64,000 nt of DNA, from NCBI GenBank assembly GCA_963813715.1, contig CAWFAK010000012.1:224001-288000 (forward strand), read 5' to 3'. The notes beneath the pieces were generated by a model that worked only from the letters and a program-made list of their open reading frames with translations, had not been told where the DNA came from and did no database searches. Source of the DNA: an uncultured Planctomycetaceae bacterium. GTDB lineage: Bacteria > Planctomycetota > Planctomycetia > Planctomycetales > Planctomycetaceae. Below are positions 11,620 through 46,708 of the stretch, piece by piece. The stretch's first letter is position 1. Each line of letters starts with the position of its first letter. A program made the translations under genes and the position numbers.

Positions 11620-11703
11620 AGTCCAAAGCCCCGCGGTCCAAAGTCCAAAGTCAGGATTGCGAGCCGCTGAATTCTCGACTTTGGACTTTGGACCTTGGAC
11701 TCT
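11620..11703. repeat. Inverted heptamer arrays (GTCCAAA)n / (TTTGGAC)n
   Basis: AGTCCAAAG..GGTCCAAAGTCCAAAGTC followed by GACTTTGGACTTTGGACCTTGGACT. Confidence 0.75.
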
Positions 11704-39746: not shown

Positions 39747-41099
39747 ATGTCGAAGCCGTCCGACATCCAGATCGTTGAAGCCGTTCTGAGCTTTGAATCG
39801 GTCCCCTATCGCACTCCGTTGAAGTTTGGCGGGCGGACCGTTGACCACGCGATTCTGGTCAACGTCGAAGTCTCCGCGGAAAGTCGCCGCGGCCACGGCG
39901 CCTCCGGTTTCGGCACCATGCCCCTGGGCAGCGCGTGGGCCTGGCCCAGCACCTCCCTCTCGGTCGAGCAGACCGAAGACGCGATGCAGAAGTTCGCGGA
40001 GGACGTGATCGAGCTGGCCAACGGCTATCCCGACTTCGGCCACCCGATCGAAATCGCCTATTCGCTCTCCGCCGAATACCCGCACGTGGCCAAAACGCTG
40101 GCGCAACGGCTCAAGCTGTCCGAAGAGATGCCGCTGTTGGCTCAACTCGTCGCCGCGAGCGCGTTCGACGCCGCCCTGCACGACGCCTTCGGCCGCGCCA
40201 ACGACATGAACTCGTACGACGGACTGTCGTCGAAGCACATGAACGACGATCTGTCGATCTACCTCGACGACCAGTTCAAGGGCGAGTATCTCGACAAGTA
40301 CACGCTGCGACAGCCGAAGCCGACCTTGCCGCTCTACCACCTGGTCGGGGCGCTCGATCCGCTCACCGCGGCCGAGGTGAAGCAGCCGCTCAAGGACGGA
40401 CTGCCCGAATCGTTAAGCGATTGGATCAAGGCCGACGGGCTGACGCATCTGAAGATCAAGCTGGCCGGCGACGATTTGAACTGGGACGTCGAGCGGACCC
40501 TGGCCGTCGATCGCGTCGCCACGGAGGCGGCCTCTGCCAAGGGCAAGTCGGCGCTCTCGTATTCGTGCGACTTCAACGAGAAGTGCCCGAACGCGGCCTA
40601 CGTGGTCGATTTCCTCAACCGCATCAAAAAGCAGAATGCGGCCGCCTTCGATCGCATCCAGTACCTCGAACAGCCGACGCACCGCAACCTGCGCGAGCAC
40701 CCGAACGATAAAATGCACGACGCGGCGAAGCTCAAGCCCGTCGTGATCGACGAATCGCTGGTCGACTACGAATCGCTGACATTGGCCCGCGACATGGGCT
40801 ATAGCGGCGTGGCCCTCAAAACGTGCAAGGGGCAGACCGATTCGTTGCTGCTGGCCGCCGCCGCGCAGAAGTTCGGCATGTTCGTCTGCGTGCAGGACCT
40901 CACCTGCCCAGGCGCGTCGTTCCTGCAGTCAGCCTCGCTCGCGGCCCGCATCCCCACGGTGGCCGCCGTCGAAGGCAACAGCCGGCAGTACTGCCCGCAA
41001 GCCAACAAGCTGTGGGCCAAAAAGTATCCCGGCCTCTTCAAAGTCACCGACGGCCAGGTGACCACCGGCGCGCTCAACAAGATCGGCCTGGGATTCTGA
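39747..41099 (+). CDS. Mandelate racemase/muconate lactonizing enzyme (enolase superfamily) protein
   Basis: 'RTPLKFGG', 'HLKIKL.G', 'DFNE', 'YLEQP', 'IDES', 'ALK.CKG'. Confidence 0.88.
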   Translation: MSKPSDIQIVEAVLSFESVPYRTPLKFGGRTVDHAILVNVEVSAESRRGHGASGFGTMPLGSAWAWPSTSLSVEQTEDAMQKFAEDVIELANGYPDFGHPIEIAYSLSAEYPHVAKTLAQRLKLSEEMPLLAQLVAASAFDAALHDAFGRANDMNSYDGLSSKHMNDDLSIYLDDQFKGEYLDKYTLRQPKPTLPLYHLVGALDPLTAAEVKQPLKDGLPESLSDWIKADGLTHLKIKLAGDDLNWDVERTLAVDRVATEAASAKGKSALSYSCDFNEKCPNAAYVVDFLNRIKKQNAAAFDRIQYLEQPTHRNLREHPNDKMHDAAKLKPVVIDESLVDYESLTLARDMGYSGVALKTCKGQTDSLLLAAAAQKFGMFVCVQDLTCPGASFLQSASLAARIPTVAAVEGNSRQYCPQANKLWAKKYPGLFKVTDGQVTTGALNKIGLGF

Positions 41100-41116
41100 G
41101 GTCTCTCGTCAGCTCG

Positions 41117-41199
41117 GGGTGGCACTGGCGGCTTGCCGCCAGTGCGCTTTCTCGAAAACCGCGAAGACAACACTGGCGGACAAGCCGCCAGTGCCACCC
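41117..41199. repeat. REP doublet GGGTGGCACTGGCGG...CCGCCAGTGCCACCC
   Basis: Two hairpins in inverted orientation between convergent genes; another copy at 45451-45485. Confidence 0.85.
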
Positions 41200-41251
41200 A
41201 TCGATTTGACCGGCCGATTCCACCCACCGCAATTGACGCGGCAGCTTGGCT

Positions 41252-41962
41252 CTACCAGGGTCCGCGCGTTTGCAGCGACTGGATGTTCGAGAACGCCAGC
41301 AGCGCGAACAAGAGCGCCGGATACATCCCGTACTGTTCGCGGTGCTGCCAGCCGTAAAAAGCCACACCGCCGGCGACAATCACACTCAGCATGGCGGCCA
41401 AGCGTGCACCGTCCCAAGGTCGAAAGCGTCTGAAGAGCGCTTCCGAGATGCGCCCGCCGTCAAGCGGCAGCACCGGCAGCAAGTTTACCAGACCCCACCA
41501 CAGGTTGATGAACTCCATGAAGTCGAAAAATGCCAGTAGCCGGATCTGCCAGAGGGGTTCGAGCGTCTGCGGCCATCCGGAGGCAATCAGGGCGGACGCG
41601 GCAACGTAGACCAACCCATATAAGAGGAATCCCGCGCCCGGCCCGGCAAACGAGATCAATACTGAGCGCCCCGTCGTGTGGCCGGACGTGGGACGGTAAA
41701 CGGCCAAGCCGCCGAAGCCATACAAGTAAACCTGGGGTGGCCAGCCGCAGGCGAGTGCCGTCAGCGCGTGACCCATCTCGTGCACGAGGATCGACACAAA
41801 CAGACAGCCGATCCAGATGAATAGCAGACTGATCCGGTCTTCGCTGTTCTCATGCCAGCCAGTGATCAGCCCGGCCAGCCAGAACCAGGGCGTCACGGCG
41901 ACGGGAATGCCGAACAGGCGAAATCGCAGGTCGTAGGGGGTCGTCCCGACCGATCCGAACAT
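41252..41962 (-). CDS. Site-2 protease (M50) family protein
   Basis: 'SILVHEMGHA', 'ISFAGP', 'NLLPVLPLDGG'. Confidence 0.95.
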   Translation of the reverse strand: MFGSVGTTPYDLRFRLFGIPVAVTPWFWLAGLITGWHENSEDRISLLFIWIGCLFVSILVHEMGHALTALACGWPPQVYLYGFGGLAVYRPTSGHTTGRSVLISFAGPGAGFLLYGLVYVAASALIASGWPQTLEPLWQIRLLAFFDFMEFINLWWGLVNLLPVLPLDGGRISEALFRRFRPWDGARLAAMLSVIVAGGVAFYGWQHREQYGMYPALLFALLAFSNIQSLQTRGPW

Positions 41963-42034
41963 GTCGCGTCAACTTCCTGCTCTGACCGCCTCAATTGGTC
42001 GCGTTTGCCGTGCGGGTCGGCCGGCGTTCGGGGA

Positions 42035-42062
42035 TTGACCCATTCGCCCGACCGACTAGGAT
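42035..42062 (+). promoter_or_regulatory. sigma70-like promoter for putative retron transcript
   Basis: TTGACC (42035-42040)-N16-TAGGAT (42057-42062), 8 nt before the 5' arm of the ncRNA stem. Confidence 0.6.
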
Positions 42063-42070
42063 ATGCACAA

Positions 42071-42247
42071 CGTGGCCGGCCGGTCGCACAAGCTCGGTTC
42101 GCTTCGCCTTAACCGGCGTTGCGAACGCTGCGGGGTTACCCCGTGGTCGCAACATTGTATCCATTTCGTGGCGTGAATGACCTCCTCGGCAGACCATACC
42201 GAGTAGGACATTCGGCACAGGACCCGTTGTGCAGCCCGCCGGCCATG
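42071..42247 (+). ncRNA. Putative retron msr-msd RNA
   Basis: Terminal inverted repeat CGTGGCCGGCCGGTCGCACAA (42071-42091) / TTGTGCAGCCCGCCGGCCATG (42227-42247), 17 Watson-Crick + 2 G-U of 21; G42092 in AGC context right after the 5' arm; hairpins 42095-42115 and 42118-42153; msd-like stem-loop about 42175-42213; ends 19 nt before the RT start. Confidence 0.72.
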
Positions 42248-42266
42248 CTCTTTGGATCCCCCCCGC

Positions 42267-43526
42267 ATGGGGCTCTTCGATTTCTTCTGGCGGCTGTTTT
42301 CCCCGCGTCCCTCTCGACCTGAGCCGCGTGCCCCCCGCGCGGCAAGCGCCGCCGCAAGCCCTGGCTGGTCCCGCTGCGTCGACAAGTCGGCAGCACGACC
42401 TGGGAACTCAATAGCACCGTTCGCACCGCCACGCCGCCCTATGCCTTCGCACGGCTCGGAGTCGGCACCGATCGTTACCTCGACCTGTCGCAGGACGGCA
42501 GCGACGAGCGTCTGGCTCGCCACGCGTTCCCCGTCTTTCGCACGCCCGAGCAATTGGCCGCGTGGCTCGAGCTGCCGATGGGCCGCCTCGCCTGGCTCGT
42601 GCACCGCTATGCGGAAGACTCGCGTCCGCAGAACGAGCGCGACGCGCACTACCACTATCGCTGGATCAGCAAGCGGCGCGGCGGCCGACGCCTGATCGAA
42701 TCGCCCAAGCTCACGCTGAAGACCGCCCAAAAGCGGATCCTCCGCGAGATTCTCAACAAGGTGCCCCCGCACGACGACGGCCCACGGCTTCGCGGCCGGC
42801 CGCTCGATCCTCACCAACGCGCAGCCCCACGTGAAGCAGGCCGTGCTGGTAAAGTTCGACCTGGAAAACTTTTACCCCAGCGTCACCCTCTCCCGCGTGA
42901 CGGCCATCTTTCGCAGCCTGGGCTACAGTCGTGAAGCGTCCATTTGGCTGGCGCGGCTCACGACGTCGGCCCTGCCGGCCAACATGCCCTTCGTGAAGCA
43001 AGAACCTTCGGCCGTGCTGCCCTACCTCAAACGACATCTGCCGCAAGGCGCGCCGACTTCGCCGGCGCTCGCGAACCTGTCGGCCTATTCGCTCGACGTG
43101 CGACTCTCCGGCCTGGCCCGCTCGTTCGGCGCGACCTATACCCGCTATGCCGACGATCTCACTTTTTCCGGACCGCCGCGGTTCGGCACGTCGCTCCGCG
43201 ATTTCATCCCGCTTGTGTCGCAAATCGTGCGGCAGGAGCGGTTCCGTCTGAACGGAGCCAAGCGGAAGGTGCTCCGCTCGAGCGGCCGGCTGGTCGTCAC
43301 GGGGGTCGTGGTCAACGAAAAGCTCAACGTCTCGCGTCGCGAGTTCGACCGGCTGAAGGCCGTGCTGACCAACTGCCTCCGCCAAGGCCCCTCGACGCAG
43401 AACAAAGCCGGCCATCCGCACTTTGCCGCCCATCTACGCGGACGCGTCGCCCAGATGACCCAGCTCAATTCGGCCCGCGGTGCCCGACTCCTGGCGATTT
43501 ACAATCAAATCGATTGGAATCGTTAG
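42267..43526 (+). CDS. Retron-type reverse transcriptase with N-terminal extension; apparent frameshifts near 42340 and 42778
   Basis: 'HY....I.KR.GG.R.IESPK..LK..Q..IL..IL', 'AHGF..GRSI.TNAQPH' (region X NAxxH), 'KFDLENFYPSV', 'LPQGAPTSP.LAN', 'YTRYADDLTFSG', 'VTGVVVN' (region Y VTG). Confidence 0.92.
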
Positions 43527-43544
43527 AAGCTAGGAACGCTTCGC

Positions 43545-44261
43545 ATGCTCCGCGAATTGCTGCTGATCTACATCACTCGTCCGATGGCGCGGCTGATCAT
43601 CCGCATGGGGGCCCTCCCCGCGCTGCGATTCTGCTTTCACCACGTGCGGGCGCTGGAACGACTCAACGACGAGTTGGAGAAGGATCTGGCCGAATGGATC
43701 CGCGGCTCGCTGTTGTTGCTCTTGATCACCGCCAACATGGAAGTGCTGCTCTGGCACAAGCTGATTCCTTACCCCGATTTGCTCGACGCCCACAAATGGT
43801 TCGGCGTCGGCCTGCGGATCATGCTGGCGATCGCCGTCATTCAAATGATGCCCGACCAGGAGCTGTTCACGGTCATTCACCCCGGCCCGCGAATCCCAAA
43901 GTTTCCCCCCTGCACCTCGCTGGCGGAAAAATTGCGGCTGTGCGCGAAGCCGGTGGGTCTCGGCATGTTCTGGCAGCACCTCAGCCGCTCTTCGCCCGTG
44001 TTCGCGATCCTGGCCGTGATCTTCACCGGCTGGATCGGCTGGTTCTGTTATGGCATGGCCTCCCTGCAATACTTGTTCATTGGCCTGGTCACGTCGCGCG
44101 ACCGGGCGATCGATGTGCTCTTGGTCTTCGACGAACAAATGGCCGCCCGCCGACACGAGCTCGTGCGGCAAGTGACCGTGCTCACGGAGTTCACCCGGAA
44201 CGAAGCCGCCTTCGATCAGTCGGAATTGCAGGTCCACAACGACTCGCACTGCGGCGATTAA
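43545..44261 (+). CDS. Uncharacterised multi-pass membrane protein (candidate retron partner)
   Basis: 238 aa, 3-4 hydrophobic segments, AGGA RBS, starts 18 bp after the RT stop. Confidence 0.8.
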   Translation: MLRELLLIYITRPMARLIIRMGALPALRFCFHHVRALERLNDELEKDLAEWIRGSLLLLLITANMEVLLWHKLIPYPDLLDAHKWFGVGLRIMLAIAVIQMMPDQELFTVIHPGPRIPKFPPCTSLAEKLRLCAKPVGLGMFWQHLSRSSPVFAILAVIFTGWIGWFCYGMASLQYLFIGLVTSRDRAIDVLLVFDEQMAARRHELVRQVTVLTEFTRNEAAFDQSELQVHNDSHCGD

Positions 44262-44326
44262 TCTTCACGCGGGCCACCTGCGTAAGCTGGCGGGTGCTTT
44301 CAGAAAGCAGAAAGGTTGTCGAGCGC

Positions 44327-44932
44327 ATGGAAATCGAAGTAGCGGGCTCGCAGCCGGTCGACATCTACCGTTTGCTGATTTCCTGCGTCACGCCACGGCC
44401 CATCGCCTGGGTGACCAGCATCGACCGGGAAGGGCGGGTGAATCTGGCGCCGTTCAGCTTCTTCAACGCGTTCGGCGCGGACCCGCCGGTGGTCGTCTTC
44501 GCTCCGAACCGACGGAGCGACGGCTCGAAAAAGGACACGCTGGCCAACGTCGAAGCGACCGGCGATTTCGTGGTCAATGCGGCCGTCGCCGAGCTGGCGG
44601 AGGAGGTCAATCTGTCGTCCAAGGACTTGCCGCACGGCGAGAGCGAAGTCGAGCTGACCGGCCTGTCGGTGACGCCGTCCCGCAAGGTGAAATCCCCGCG
44701 GCTCGCAGAATCACCTTTGCACATGGAGTGCGTGCTGCGGCAGGTGATCCCGATCGGCGACCGCCAGTTGTCGGCCAACCTGGTGATCGGCGAGATCGTG
44801 CTCTTTCACGTCGACGACCGCCTGCTCGACGCCAACGGCCGCATCGACCCGCGCAAGATCAAAACGTTCGCCCGCCTCGGCGGCAACTACTACTGCCACA
44901 CAAGCGATCTGTTCGAGATGAAACGGCCTTGA
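44327..44932 (+). CDS. Flavin reductase family (FMN-binding split barrel) protein
   Basis: 'Y.LL...V.PRPIAWVTS....G.VNLAPFSFFN', 'KDTL.NV..TG.FVVN', 'RLGG..Y'. Confidence 0.93.
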   Translation: MEIEVAGSQPVDIYRLLISCVTPRPIAWVTSIDREGRVNLAPFSFFNAFGADPPVVVFAPNRRSDGSKKDTLANVEATGDFVVNAAVAELAEEVNLSSKDLPHGESEVELTGLSVTPSRKVKSPRLAESPLHMECVLRQVIPIGDRQLSANLVIGEIVLFHVDDRLLDANGRIDPRKIKTFARLGGNYYCHTSDLFEMKRP

Positions 44933-44965
44933 CTGCAACTGGCCGTTCGCTCGCAGGCCCGCGGG

Positions 44966-45418
44966 TCATGACAGCCTGAGTTGCATCGTCTCGTTTTTGT
45001 GCGACGAGAATCCCAATCGCTCGTAGAGCTGTCTGGCTCGGGCGTTCCTGGGCGTCACCTCGAGTCGCACGGCGACGGCTTCGTTCCATTCGTTGTCGAT
45101 CAAGTGCCGGACAAAATCGGCGCCGATTCCTTGCCCGCGGCAGGGCGGAGCGACGTACAACTCATCGATGATGAGCACGTTGCCGCCGCACTCGTTGCTC
45201 CAGAAGTTGATGAGGACCGCGTAGCCGACGATCTGGCCATCCCGGTCGATTACTAAGATCGCACCCTTCTCGGGGTGTGCTGCGAGTTCATGCAGAGTGC
45301 GCGAGAAGTTCTCGTCCGGCACCGGCCGCTCCGCCGGATCTTCTTCGTAGAGTTGTCGCATGAGTCCCACGAGAGCCGCGTGATCGGTGTGAGCGACATT
45401 TCGATACTGAATCGGCAT
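44966..45418 (-). CDS. GNAT family N-acetyltransferase
   Basis: 'IDELYV.P..RGQGIG', 'LEV...N.RA..LYERLGF'. Confidence 0.92.
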   Translation of the reverse strand: MPIQYRNVAHTDHAALVGLMRQLYEEDPAERPVPDENFSRTLHELAAHPEKGAILVIDRDGQIVGYAVLINFWSNECGGNVLIIDELYVAPPCRGQGIGADFVRHLIDNEWNEAVAVRLEVTPRNARARQLYERLGFSSHKNETMQLRLS

Positions 45419-45450
45419 TTGCAGGTGCGAAACTCGCGGATTGAAGAAAA

Positions 45451-45485
45451 CGAAGACACTGGCGGACGAGCCGCCAGTGCCACCC
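45451..45485. repeat. REP copy CACTGGCGGACGAGCCGCCAGTGCCACCC
   Basis: Near-identical to 41171-41199. Confidence 0.85.
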
Positions 45486-45496
45486 GACGCCTGCCG

Positions 45497-46708
45497 CTAC
45501 GAGTTCTTCTTCGCGGGCGACTTAGCCTTGTCGCGGGCCAGCTTCAGTTTCTTCTGCGCTTGTTCATTCTGCGGATCGGCGGCCGCCCATTTCTCCAAGA
45601 GCGGCAGCGCCTTGTCGTATTCGCCTTTCTCGAAATAGGCATCGGCCAGGCCGACTGTGCCGGCGTGTACTCCGGGGATTTTCTCCACCATCTCTTTCCA
45701 GATCTTGATCGCGCCGTCGGTGTCGCCCTTGGCGGAGAGCACGCGGGCCAGGCCGTTCATCGCCCCGGCGGCGCCGGGTTCCGCGGCGATGGCTCGCTCA
45801 AAATACGGTTTGGCGCCGTCCAAGTCTCCCTCAGTCAGCAGGCACCAGCCCATGCCATTGAGAGCGTTGGCGTCTTTGGGATTCTTGGTCACCAGCGGGT
45901 TCAAGATGGCCTTCGCCTCGGCATGGCGTCCCTGGTTGATCAAGGCCCACGCGCGGCCGACCTCCGCCTGCGCGGGACTCGGCTCGATTTGCTCAAGCAG
46001 TTCCGCGGTAAGTTTCTTGGCTTGCGCCGCTTTCAGCATCTCCTGCACGGAAGGATCGGTCTCGCCTTCGGCCAGGATCTTTTTCGCGTACTTCTCGGCT
46101 TGATCGTACTTGCCGGTGAGCAGGTACAGCTTCGCCAAACCGTACCAGGCGGCCGAGGCCTGCGGCGCGGCTTTGAGCAGATATTCCTCGGCCTCGCGGT
46201 AGTTGCGTTGCGACAGCGCGATCTGCCCCAGGCCGTTCAGCGCGGCCGGATGCTTGGGCTCGAGGGCAATCACTTTCTTGAAAGCCGTTTGGGCCGCGTC
46301 CGCTTTGCCGCTGTTGAAACTGGCCCAGCCGAGGCCGTTCCACGCGGCGGCGTTCTTGGGATCGAGCTTGACCGCCGCCTCGAACTTTTCGATCGCCGGC
46401 TTGAGTTCTTGCTTTTGCCACAGCTGCCAGCCTTCGGCCGACAGTGCGGCGGCTTTCTCTTCGGAGTCGCCTGCAACGGCGGTCGAGTCGAGCCGCACCG
46501 CGACAGTCGACGAAACCACAATCGCCGCCACCACCAGGGCCAGGACGGCAAAACCGGCGCCGAGCAAAATCTTGCGACGTAAACGTCGGCGGTCTTCACT
46601 CTTGAGCGAAGAGACGAGCAGATCGTCGGCTCGCCGCACGGCATCGTCGAGACGCGCCTGTTCGAGGTTCGATTCCGAGTACGGAGGATTCGAGTTGTGT
46701 GCCGACAT
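45497..46708 (-). CDS. Membrane-anchored TPR protein
   Basis: Short cytoplasmic N-terminus, one TM, repeated 'A..LDP....A.NGLG' TPRs. Confidence 0.9.
   Translation of the reverse strand: MSAHNSNPPYSESNLEQARLDDAVRRADDLLVSSLKSEDRRRLRRKILLGAGFAVLALVVAAIVVSSTVAVRLDSTAVAGDSEEKAAALSAEGWQLWQKQELKPAIEKFEAAVKLDPKNAAAWNGLGWASFNSGKADAAQTAFKKVIALEPKHPAALNGLGQIALSQRNYREAEEYLLKAAPQASAAWYGLAKLYLLTGKYDQAEKYAKKILAEGETDPSVQEMLKAAQAKKLTAELLEQIEPSPAQAEVGRAWALINQGRHAEAKAILNPLVTKNPKDANALNGMGWCLLTEGDLDGAKPYFERAIAAEPGAAGAMNGLARVLSAKGDTDGAIKIWKEMVEKIPGVHAGTVGLADAYFEKGEYDKALPLLEKWAAADPQNEQAQKKLKLARDKAKSPAKKNS

Follow-up and report, generated by a model that had tools for sequence, protein, structure and literature searches.

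The stretch flagged at 42071-42247 of the window (i.e., the whole 64,000-nt piece of DNA from an uncultured Planctomycetaceae bacterium that was analysed) is confirmed as a conserved, folded RNA of the retron kind, located ahead of its reverse transcriptase (RT) gene. The sequence-only reading of an msr/msd-like RNA is supported, with corrections: every sequence feature that it named lies where it was placed, and the anatomy of a retron is kept, with covariation, upstream of orthologous RTs of the retron clade. The element is very likely the msr-msd noncoding RNA (ncRNA) of a chromosomal retron, and as such a predicted maker of msDNA. The locus is an additional member of a known retron class and is otherwise ordinary; it is notable mainly for being kept by nearly a whole bacterial family and for having no partner toxin gene that travels with it.

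A conserved, covarying RNA upstream of the RT gene

The ncRNA and the RT gene lie on the same strand, with the ATG of the latter 19 nt 3′ of the ncRNA end (Table 1). A covariance model (R1), derived from MAFFT alignments of 14 sequences (A1/A2), matched the + strand of the window at 193.7 bits vs 27.8 bits for the - strand, and recovered a single strong ncRNA copy in the genome. At two positions, U-G pairs are found in 41/57 and 49/57 sequences, for which the opposite strand would give C-A mismatches; together with the difference in bit score, these frequent U-G pairs assign the ncRNA to the + strand. When both strands of 40000-46000 were scanned against Rfam with E values of up to 10, no family overlapped 42069-42249, with all 8 matches located off the ncRNA and far under their gathering scores.

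Table 1. Coordinates of the RNA element, its predicted promoter and the adjacent genes in the window
Feature	Position	Strand	Remarks
Sigma-70-type promoter (predicted)	42035..42062	+	TTGACC (42035-42040), 16-nt spacer, TAGGAT (42057-42062)
msr-msd-type ncRNA, whole	42069..42249	+	Extent as matched by the covariance model
a1, 5′ arm of closing stem	42071..42091	+	Pairs with 42227-42247
Predicted priming (branching) G	42092	+	Unpaired, directly 3′ of a1
msr hairpin 1	42097..42126	+	GTTCGC (42097-42102)/GCGAAC (42121-42126) plus inner CGCC/GGCG
msr hairpin 2	42128..42146	+	CTGCGGGG, loop TTA, CCCCGTGG
msd hairpin, template for predicted msDNA stem	42175..42213	+	Window fold of 13 pairs, -14.8 kcal/mol
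a2, 3′ arm of closing stem	42227..42247	+	Pairs with a1; covariation
Retron-type RT gene	42267..43526	+	419 aa when intact
orfD, 238-aa hydrophobic protein	43545..44261	+	Adjacent to RT; membership of the system doubtful

Folded alone, positions 42060-42260 yield a minimum free energy of -90.4 kcal/mol (z = -3.94), with 0/200 shuffles as stable. Pairing of the a1 and a2 arms was rejected as stand-alone evidence: the GC-rich window contains 34 inverted repeats of at least 18 nt within 250 nt, among which the a1/a2 pairing ranks 21st, and the pairing alone is thus not exceptional. A conserved and covarying fold was nonetheless found upstream of homologous RTs, as the initial interpretation would require, both by RNAalifold and by pair counts vs shuffles. 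The RNAalifold consensus of the 14 sequences contains 41 pairs, 13 of them with compensatory changes. In the corresponding MAFFT alignment (A2), 96.0% of cells were paired and 13/41 pairs had changed on both sides (0/500 shuffles; 37-46% when slid); in a larger MAFFT alignment of 26 sequences (A4), the values were 94.2% and 19/23 (0/500 shuffles; 41-50% when slid). For 57 distinct sequences (A5), 91.8% of cells were paired and 25/41 pairs had changed on both sides (0/500 shuffles; 38-45% when slid), in an alignment that was made by the model and is hence biased towards the structure. From these sequence comparisons, covariation supports the a1/a2 stem, the msd hairpin and an invariant GGGG-NYA-CCCC hairpin. 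In the extended msd helix, three modelled basal pairs fail in 28, 32 and 39 of the 57 sequences in A5; this part of the model is therefore wrong and is to be dropped.

Other repeats are present in the window. The longest inverted repeat (10222-10270/10414-10462) is 49 nt in length and 84% complementary, with its halves 143 nt apart, and a perfect 18-nt inverted repeat at 11635-11694 is built of a short tandem motif. Between the convergent genes 39747-41099 (+) and 41252-41962 (-) lies a perfect 19-nt inverted repeat (41117-41135/41181-41199), probably the transcription terminator of both; the sole Rfam match at this site, to a miRNA, is at chance level.

The arms of the closing stem pair as claimed from the letters, i.e., through 17 Watson-Crick and 2 G-U pairs with 2 mismatches (C42081/C42237 and C42085/A42233), and across 57 sequences 11/18 of the stem pairs have changed on both sides, with 95.2% of cells paired. 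At the inner end of the 5′ arm, A42090-A42091-G42092 is invariant in 57/57 sequences, as is the facing G42226, and G42092 is unpaired in the consensus structure. The G that had been singled out after this arm therefore stands, but not the AGC context in which it had been placed: C comes next in only 31/57 sequences, and the context that is kept is A-A-G. By analogy with the retron biology described in passages of PMC7736814, G42092 would be the primer.

Between the arms, two hairpins belong to the msr and a single one, of 13-18 pairs, to the msd, in keeping with the retron plan of one to three short msr hairpins and a long msd stem-loop. The CGGTT/AACCG pairing first suggested for the msr exists in the window and is not conserved; it gives way to the two-part stem of msr hairpin 1 (Table 1). 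The latter was present in all aligned relatives inspected, with a sequence, loop and length that vary between species (including GCAA tetraloops at loci L017, L022 and L024); since lengths differ, its conservation was read by eye from the alignments and carries no tool count. For msr hairpin 2, 99.3% of cells were paired over 8 pairs in 57 sequences, with four invariant G-C pairs, three outer pairs that covary (C-G to U-A in 17/57) and a loop of TTA, ATA or CTA in 56/57. This hairpin persists even in a paralogue clade of roughly 45% identity and is the probable RT recognition hairpin. A longer GTTGCGA..TCGCAAC pairing had been drawn around it, of which the inner GGGG-TTA-CCCC hairpin is conserved but the outer extension is not complementary in relatives.

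The msd-like hairpin that had been noticed further 3′ exists at 42175-42213 and is backed by covariation. In homologues it measures 38-44 nt with 13-18 pairs, a size inside the 10-50 bp range that passages of PMC7736814 give for msd stem-loops, and its sequence is very variable, with four pair types at several positions (e.g., G-C 17, U-A 16, A-U 15 and C-G 9). An alternative fold between 42064-42072 and 42225-42233, thought to depend on where transcription starts, did not survive comparison: the pairing is present in the window and the two segments are not complementary in relatives, which, with a 5′ half mostly upstream of the predicted start, leaves such a start-dependent switch unsupported.

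Scanning of 41900-42400 for promoters returned one site only (shuffle mean 0.1). Of 48 homologous upstream regions, most have a TTGAC-type box followed by a TAnnAT/ATAAT box at an equal distance, and 31 passed a strict promoter pattern. As the predicted -10 box ends at 42062, transcription would start at ~42068-42071, at the foot of the stem. Logan contigs from RNA libraries (X8, X16) cover the ncRNA and parts of the RT gene and reach upstream of the predicted promoter (from 41950 and 41987); given this extension they are no proof of the predicted transcript and may be of DNA origin. They were rejected as transcription evidence, as such contigs reveal neither starts, strand nor transcription, and stretches without contig cover were treated as uninformative. 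In one soil run (X1), a 196-nt contig spans exactly 42069-42262 at a depth of 26.5 vs 5.2 in the flanks. It was considered and rejected as a trace of msDNA; because it spans the msr and carries the hairpin-1 variant of a related lineage, it is attributed to a more abundant relative with a conserved ncRNA. In the same run, co-occurring relatives differ less in the ncRNA than in the coding DNA around it.

The RT, its distribution and its neighbours

The RT belongs to the retron clade by PADLOC, by NCBIfam and by its nearest solved chains, and also matches Pfam RVT_1. Its top PADLOC matches are all retron RT models, with the C-terminal RT piece of the window matching RT_other at 2.5e-98, RT_outgroup at 7e-94 and RT_XIII at 4e-79. 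Intact orthologues scored 410-439, 388-414 and 349-356 bits, respectively, against the same models (421, 402 and 352 bits for a single intact orthologue). Against NCBIfam, the retron families gave 1e-40 to 1e-43, values that lie under the curated cut-offs, and the DRT and group II models were far weaker than the retron ones (Drt2, 3.8e-8; Drt3a, 5.7e-5). The nearest solved chains are all retron RTs, with the Ec86 RT first (2.5e-27 over query residues 4-199). The translation contains ...TNAQPH..., ...YADD... and ...VVTGVV..., and hence both the NAXXH motif (region X) and the VTG triplet (region Y) listed as retron RT hallmarks in passages of PMC7736814. No extra C-terminal domain was found on the RT.

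RT homologues were detected in 46/61 related genomes searched and in 34/36 of those in the same family; their upstream DNA could be aligned with the window at identities between 99.5% and about 69%. R1 matched upstream of the RT, on the RT strand, in 27/31 sources from relatives; of the misses, L008 and L028 have no upstream DNA and L023 has little, whereas in L016 none was detected. Among loci from public genomes, 47/79 had such a match, rising to 44/48 where RT identity was at least 58%, with too little upstream DNA at the remaining 4. These public loci come from Planctomycetaceae, Gimesia, Schlesneria and Planctomicrobium, and weak R1 matches precede RTs of roughly 45% identity in Isosphaeraceae and Acidobacteria. 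The gene order M50 protease - ncRNA - RT is common to several genera, and at all loci with both genes, RT identity to relatives is higher than that of the neighbouring M50 protease (e.g., 87% vs 70%; 64% vs 34%).

Variations in copy number were also encountered. At locus L018 of one relative (G029), two tandem ncRNA copies (393-549 and 736-889; 103.5 and 71.6 bits) precede one RT. The genome under study encodes a second retron-type RT (contig C7:22254-22981, - strand), which is ~52% identical over the core and split between two frames; this copy (loci L002, L003 and L112) is flanked by the housekeeping genes for a Bax-inhibitor-like protein and IMP dehydrogenase. Upstream of it, a weak R1 match (L002:2836-3012; 22.3 bits) contains the GGGG-TTA-CCCC hairpin.

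No consistently adjacent effector gene was identified across the loci, and the arrangement at the locus is not that of a tripartite system. PADLOC defence models gave no matches on the RT neighbours, and Pfam and PADLOC searches of the ORFs flanking both RT copies detected none of the winged-helix/SWIM or HEAT/ARM-repeat proteins of type XIII. The gene immediately downstream, orfD, is a real gene (GC3 0.84; identity to the sister-species locus L004 above that of the antisense frame), with no match in Pfam, PADLOC or NCBIfam. It was present in 31/36 family genomes and 0/24 genomes of other families among 60 relatives searched, is distant from the RT, or on a separate contig, in several genomes, and occurs in one genome in which no RT was found. 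Given its spread through the family and its frequent lack of linkage to the RT, it was rejected as an unproven retron effector. The M50 protease was likewise discarded as a retron partner; its adjacency in many but not all loci is treated as synteny. Other RT neighbours are housekeeping genes as well, encoding an enolase-like protein, MutL, topoisomerase I and an HslU-like ATPase. With no consistently adjacent effector and with housekeeping neighbours, the locus looks like a stand-alone, vertically inherited msr-msd-RT cassette, although the ncRNA-RT pair may have an unlinked effector.

The annotation of orfD itself is uneven. Several public records label it "DNA topoisomerase I" and others "hypothetical"; the topoisomerase label is possibly a mislabel, and in Gimesia-like loci orfD adjoins a real topoisomerase I gene.

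Predicted msDNA synthesis and competing explanations

In the mechanism that we propose, the conserved promoter would start transcription at ~42069 to give one RNA carrying both the ncRNA and the RT frame. Pairing of a1 with a2 would then place the invariant G42092 opposite the invariant G42226, and the RT would bind the msr hairpins, above all the GGGG-loop-CCCC hairpin. From the 2′-OH of G42092, the RT would be primed to copy the msd leftwards, from ~42225 through the 42175-42213 hairpin, and would stop within the conserved spacer at 42147-42174. This would yield single-stranded DNA of some 55-80 nt, linked to the RNA through a branch and containing a 13-bp stem. We infer the transcription start, priming at G42092, the production and extent of msDNA, and hairpin recognition by the RT, with the retron biology behind priming, msd copying and branched msDNA drawn from passages of PMC7736814.

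Whether the RT could carry out these steps depends on how its reading frame is interpreted. As assembled, the gene runs through three frames: relative to the intact 419-aa orthologue at L004 (from a sister species, 95% identical), a base is missing at 42341/42342 and an extra base is present at 42776, such that translation from the ATG at 42267 reaches a stop at 42695. Taken at face value, these breaks would describe a recently dead retron in the source genome, with real frameshifts and an ncRNA left as a relic without a working RT, for which the frame-split state of the second RT copy on contig C7 could also be cited; if the frameshifts are genuine in the source strain, then the retron is dead there. 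We consider this highly improbable in light of Logan contigs from two soil DNA runs and two metatranscriptome runs, compared over 41950-43600. The extra C after 42341 was present in 3/3 covering public assemblies, one base fewer was present at 42775/6 in 4/4, and at a third indel (42018) the window stands alone vs 3/3; the length of the C-run at 42260-42266 also differs from that in L004. Moreover, the stretch between the two indels still encodes conserved protein, and comparison of the window with L004 gives 13 non-synonymous vs 54 synonymous differences and a dN/dS of 0.077, within an RT range of 0.077-0.115 that signifies purifying selection. Within the genus, completeness estimates are lower and split RTs more numerous in few-contig than in many-contig assemblies, a pattern that fits indel errors of long-read assembly. 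Since the covering public assemblies lack both breaks and dN/dS is 0.077, comparison of sequences indicates an intact RT in the natural population, and the breaks in the window are probably assembly errors. The evidence points to indel errors throughout the source assembly, and annotators of this genome should treat the pseudogene-like appearance of the RT as most likely an artefact of assembly. The completeness estimate of the source assembly is low, at 82.6%.

Two further explanations accept a working RT and differ in the role given to the RNA. The element might be a structured 5′ leader with a role confined to binding the RT or regulating it (e.g., its translation or stability), without msDNA synthesis. 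Such a leader would suit a group without an effector, for which canonical retron logic is incomplete, and msDNA at this locus is itself deduced. We nevertheless regard it as unlikely, as a plain leader has no need of retron geometry (i.e., a long closing stem, an unpaired invariant G after the stem and an invariant G opposite), nor of a variable, covarying hairpin at the template position, and the RT retains the retron-specific NAXXH and VTG motifs. RT-associated ncRNAs with other types of product are known, and the RNA could instead be the template for one of these, such as the unbranched or repetitive cDNA of DRT-type defence RTs; no validated msDNA for the clade was found in the literature consulted. 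This would be a very unlikely outcome given the matches of the RT to Drt2 (3.8e-8) and Drt3a (5.7e-5) vs 1e-40 or better for retron families, and given that a1/a2 arms with an invariant G are hallmarks of retrons. The msr-msd ncRNA of a chromosomal retron hence remains our preferred reading.

What such a retron would do for its host is a separate matter. We put forward, tentatively and as the less probable option, that it is a domesticated retron: part of the Planctomycetaceae core genome, passed on vertically through the history of the family, evolving more slowly than its housekeeping neighbours, effector-free, and with an msDNA function other than abortive infection. This rests on the presence of the RT in 34/36 family genomes, the shared M50 - ncRNA - RT order, the higher identity of the RT than of M50, and a dN/dS of about 0.1. 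If true, the msDNA would serve a cellular role other than abortive-infection defence. Alternatively, the locus may act in defence, by a mechanism that needs no effector or together with an unlinked one.

Retrons are phage-defence systems as well as genome-editing tools, and to our knowledge almost all functional work has been carried out on proteobacterial, effector-carrying types. With its predicted promoter, arms, priming G, and recognition and template hairpins, the present locus offers a defined RNA model of a retron lineage that has no effector and is retained at a conserved chromosomal site by almost all members of the family. Culturable relatives (Gimesia, Schlesneria) will thus make both the production of msDNA and the purpose of toxin-free retrons testable.

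Comparison with known retron types

Beyond the surveys PMC7736814 and PMC13712802, literature searches on retrons in Planctomycetes returned a single review (PMC8867640). Ec86 (Eco1), whose RT is the closest with a solved structure, shares with the present locus the homology of the RT core (E = 2.5e-27, residues 4-199 of the query) and the plan of the ncRNA, i.e., a closing stem, an unpaired G, msr hairpins and an msd hairpin. It differs in that there is no sequence similarity between the two RNAs, in that the present RT is longer at its N terminus by about 85-120 residues, and in that Ec86 works with an effector, according to general statements on retrons in the source passages.

Parallels are also offered by type XIII retrons (RT clade 10; Mx162, Mx65, Sa163 and Ne144), with which the locus shares a long N-terminal extension of the RT, a long a1/a2 stem and evidence of vertical inheritance, and RT_XIII ranks third among the PADLOC models, with 352 bits. 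This score is about 50-70 bits under those of RT_outgroup and RT_other; moreover, no winged-helix/SWIM or HEAT/ARM-repeat protein is located beside either RT copy here, and the msd hairpin is short, at 13-18 pairs. Assignment to type XIII was accordingly rejected, with RT_XIII not the best model (352 vs 421 and 402 bits) and the accessory proteins absent from the flanks.

The locus resembles the stand-alone retrons of clade 11, or "outgroup" (ncRNA models A and B; Mestre et al. 2020, PMC7736814), and is provisionally filed with them on the basis of PADLOC model names and of passages from PMC7736814 and PMC13712802. Both combine a retron-clade RT with a neighbouring msr-msd-like RNA and lack an associated effector gene, and RT_outgroup scores 402 bits on the intact orthologue, near the top score of 421 bits for RT_other; stand-alone (msr-msd)-RT cassettes occur in clade 11 according to passages of PMC7736814. 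That the PADLOC "outgroup" equals clade 11 is our reading of the model name "OutgroupB" in part of the 2026 SPIRE survey (PMC13712802), where an RNA model of this name appears and where low-confidence clade11-B candidates come mostly from Planctomycetota. Clade 11 as published is essentially restricted to Actinobacteria in the passages of Mestre et al. 2020 (PMC7736814), whereas the locus described here is planctomycete, with an element that almost all members of one family carry at a conserved place in the chromosome.
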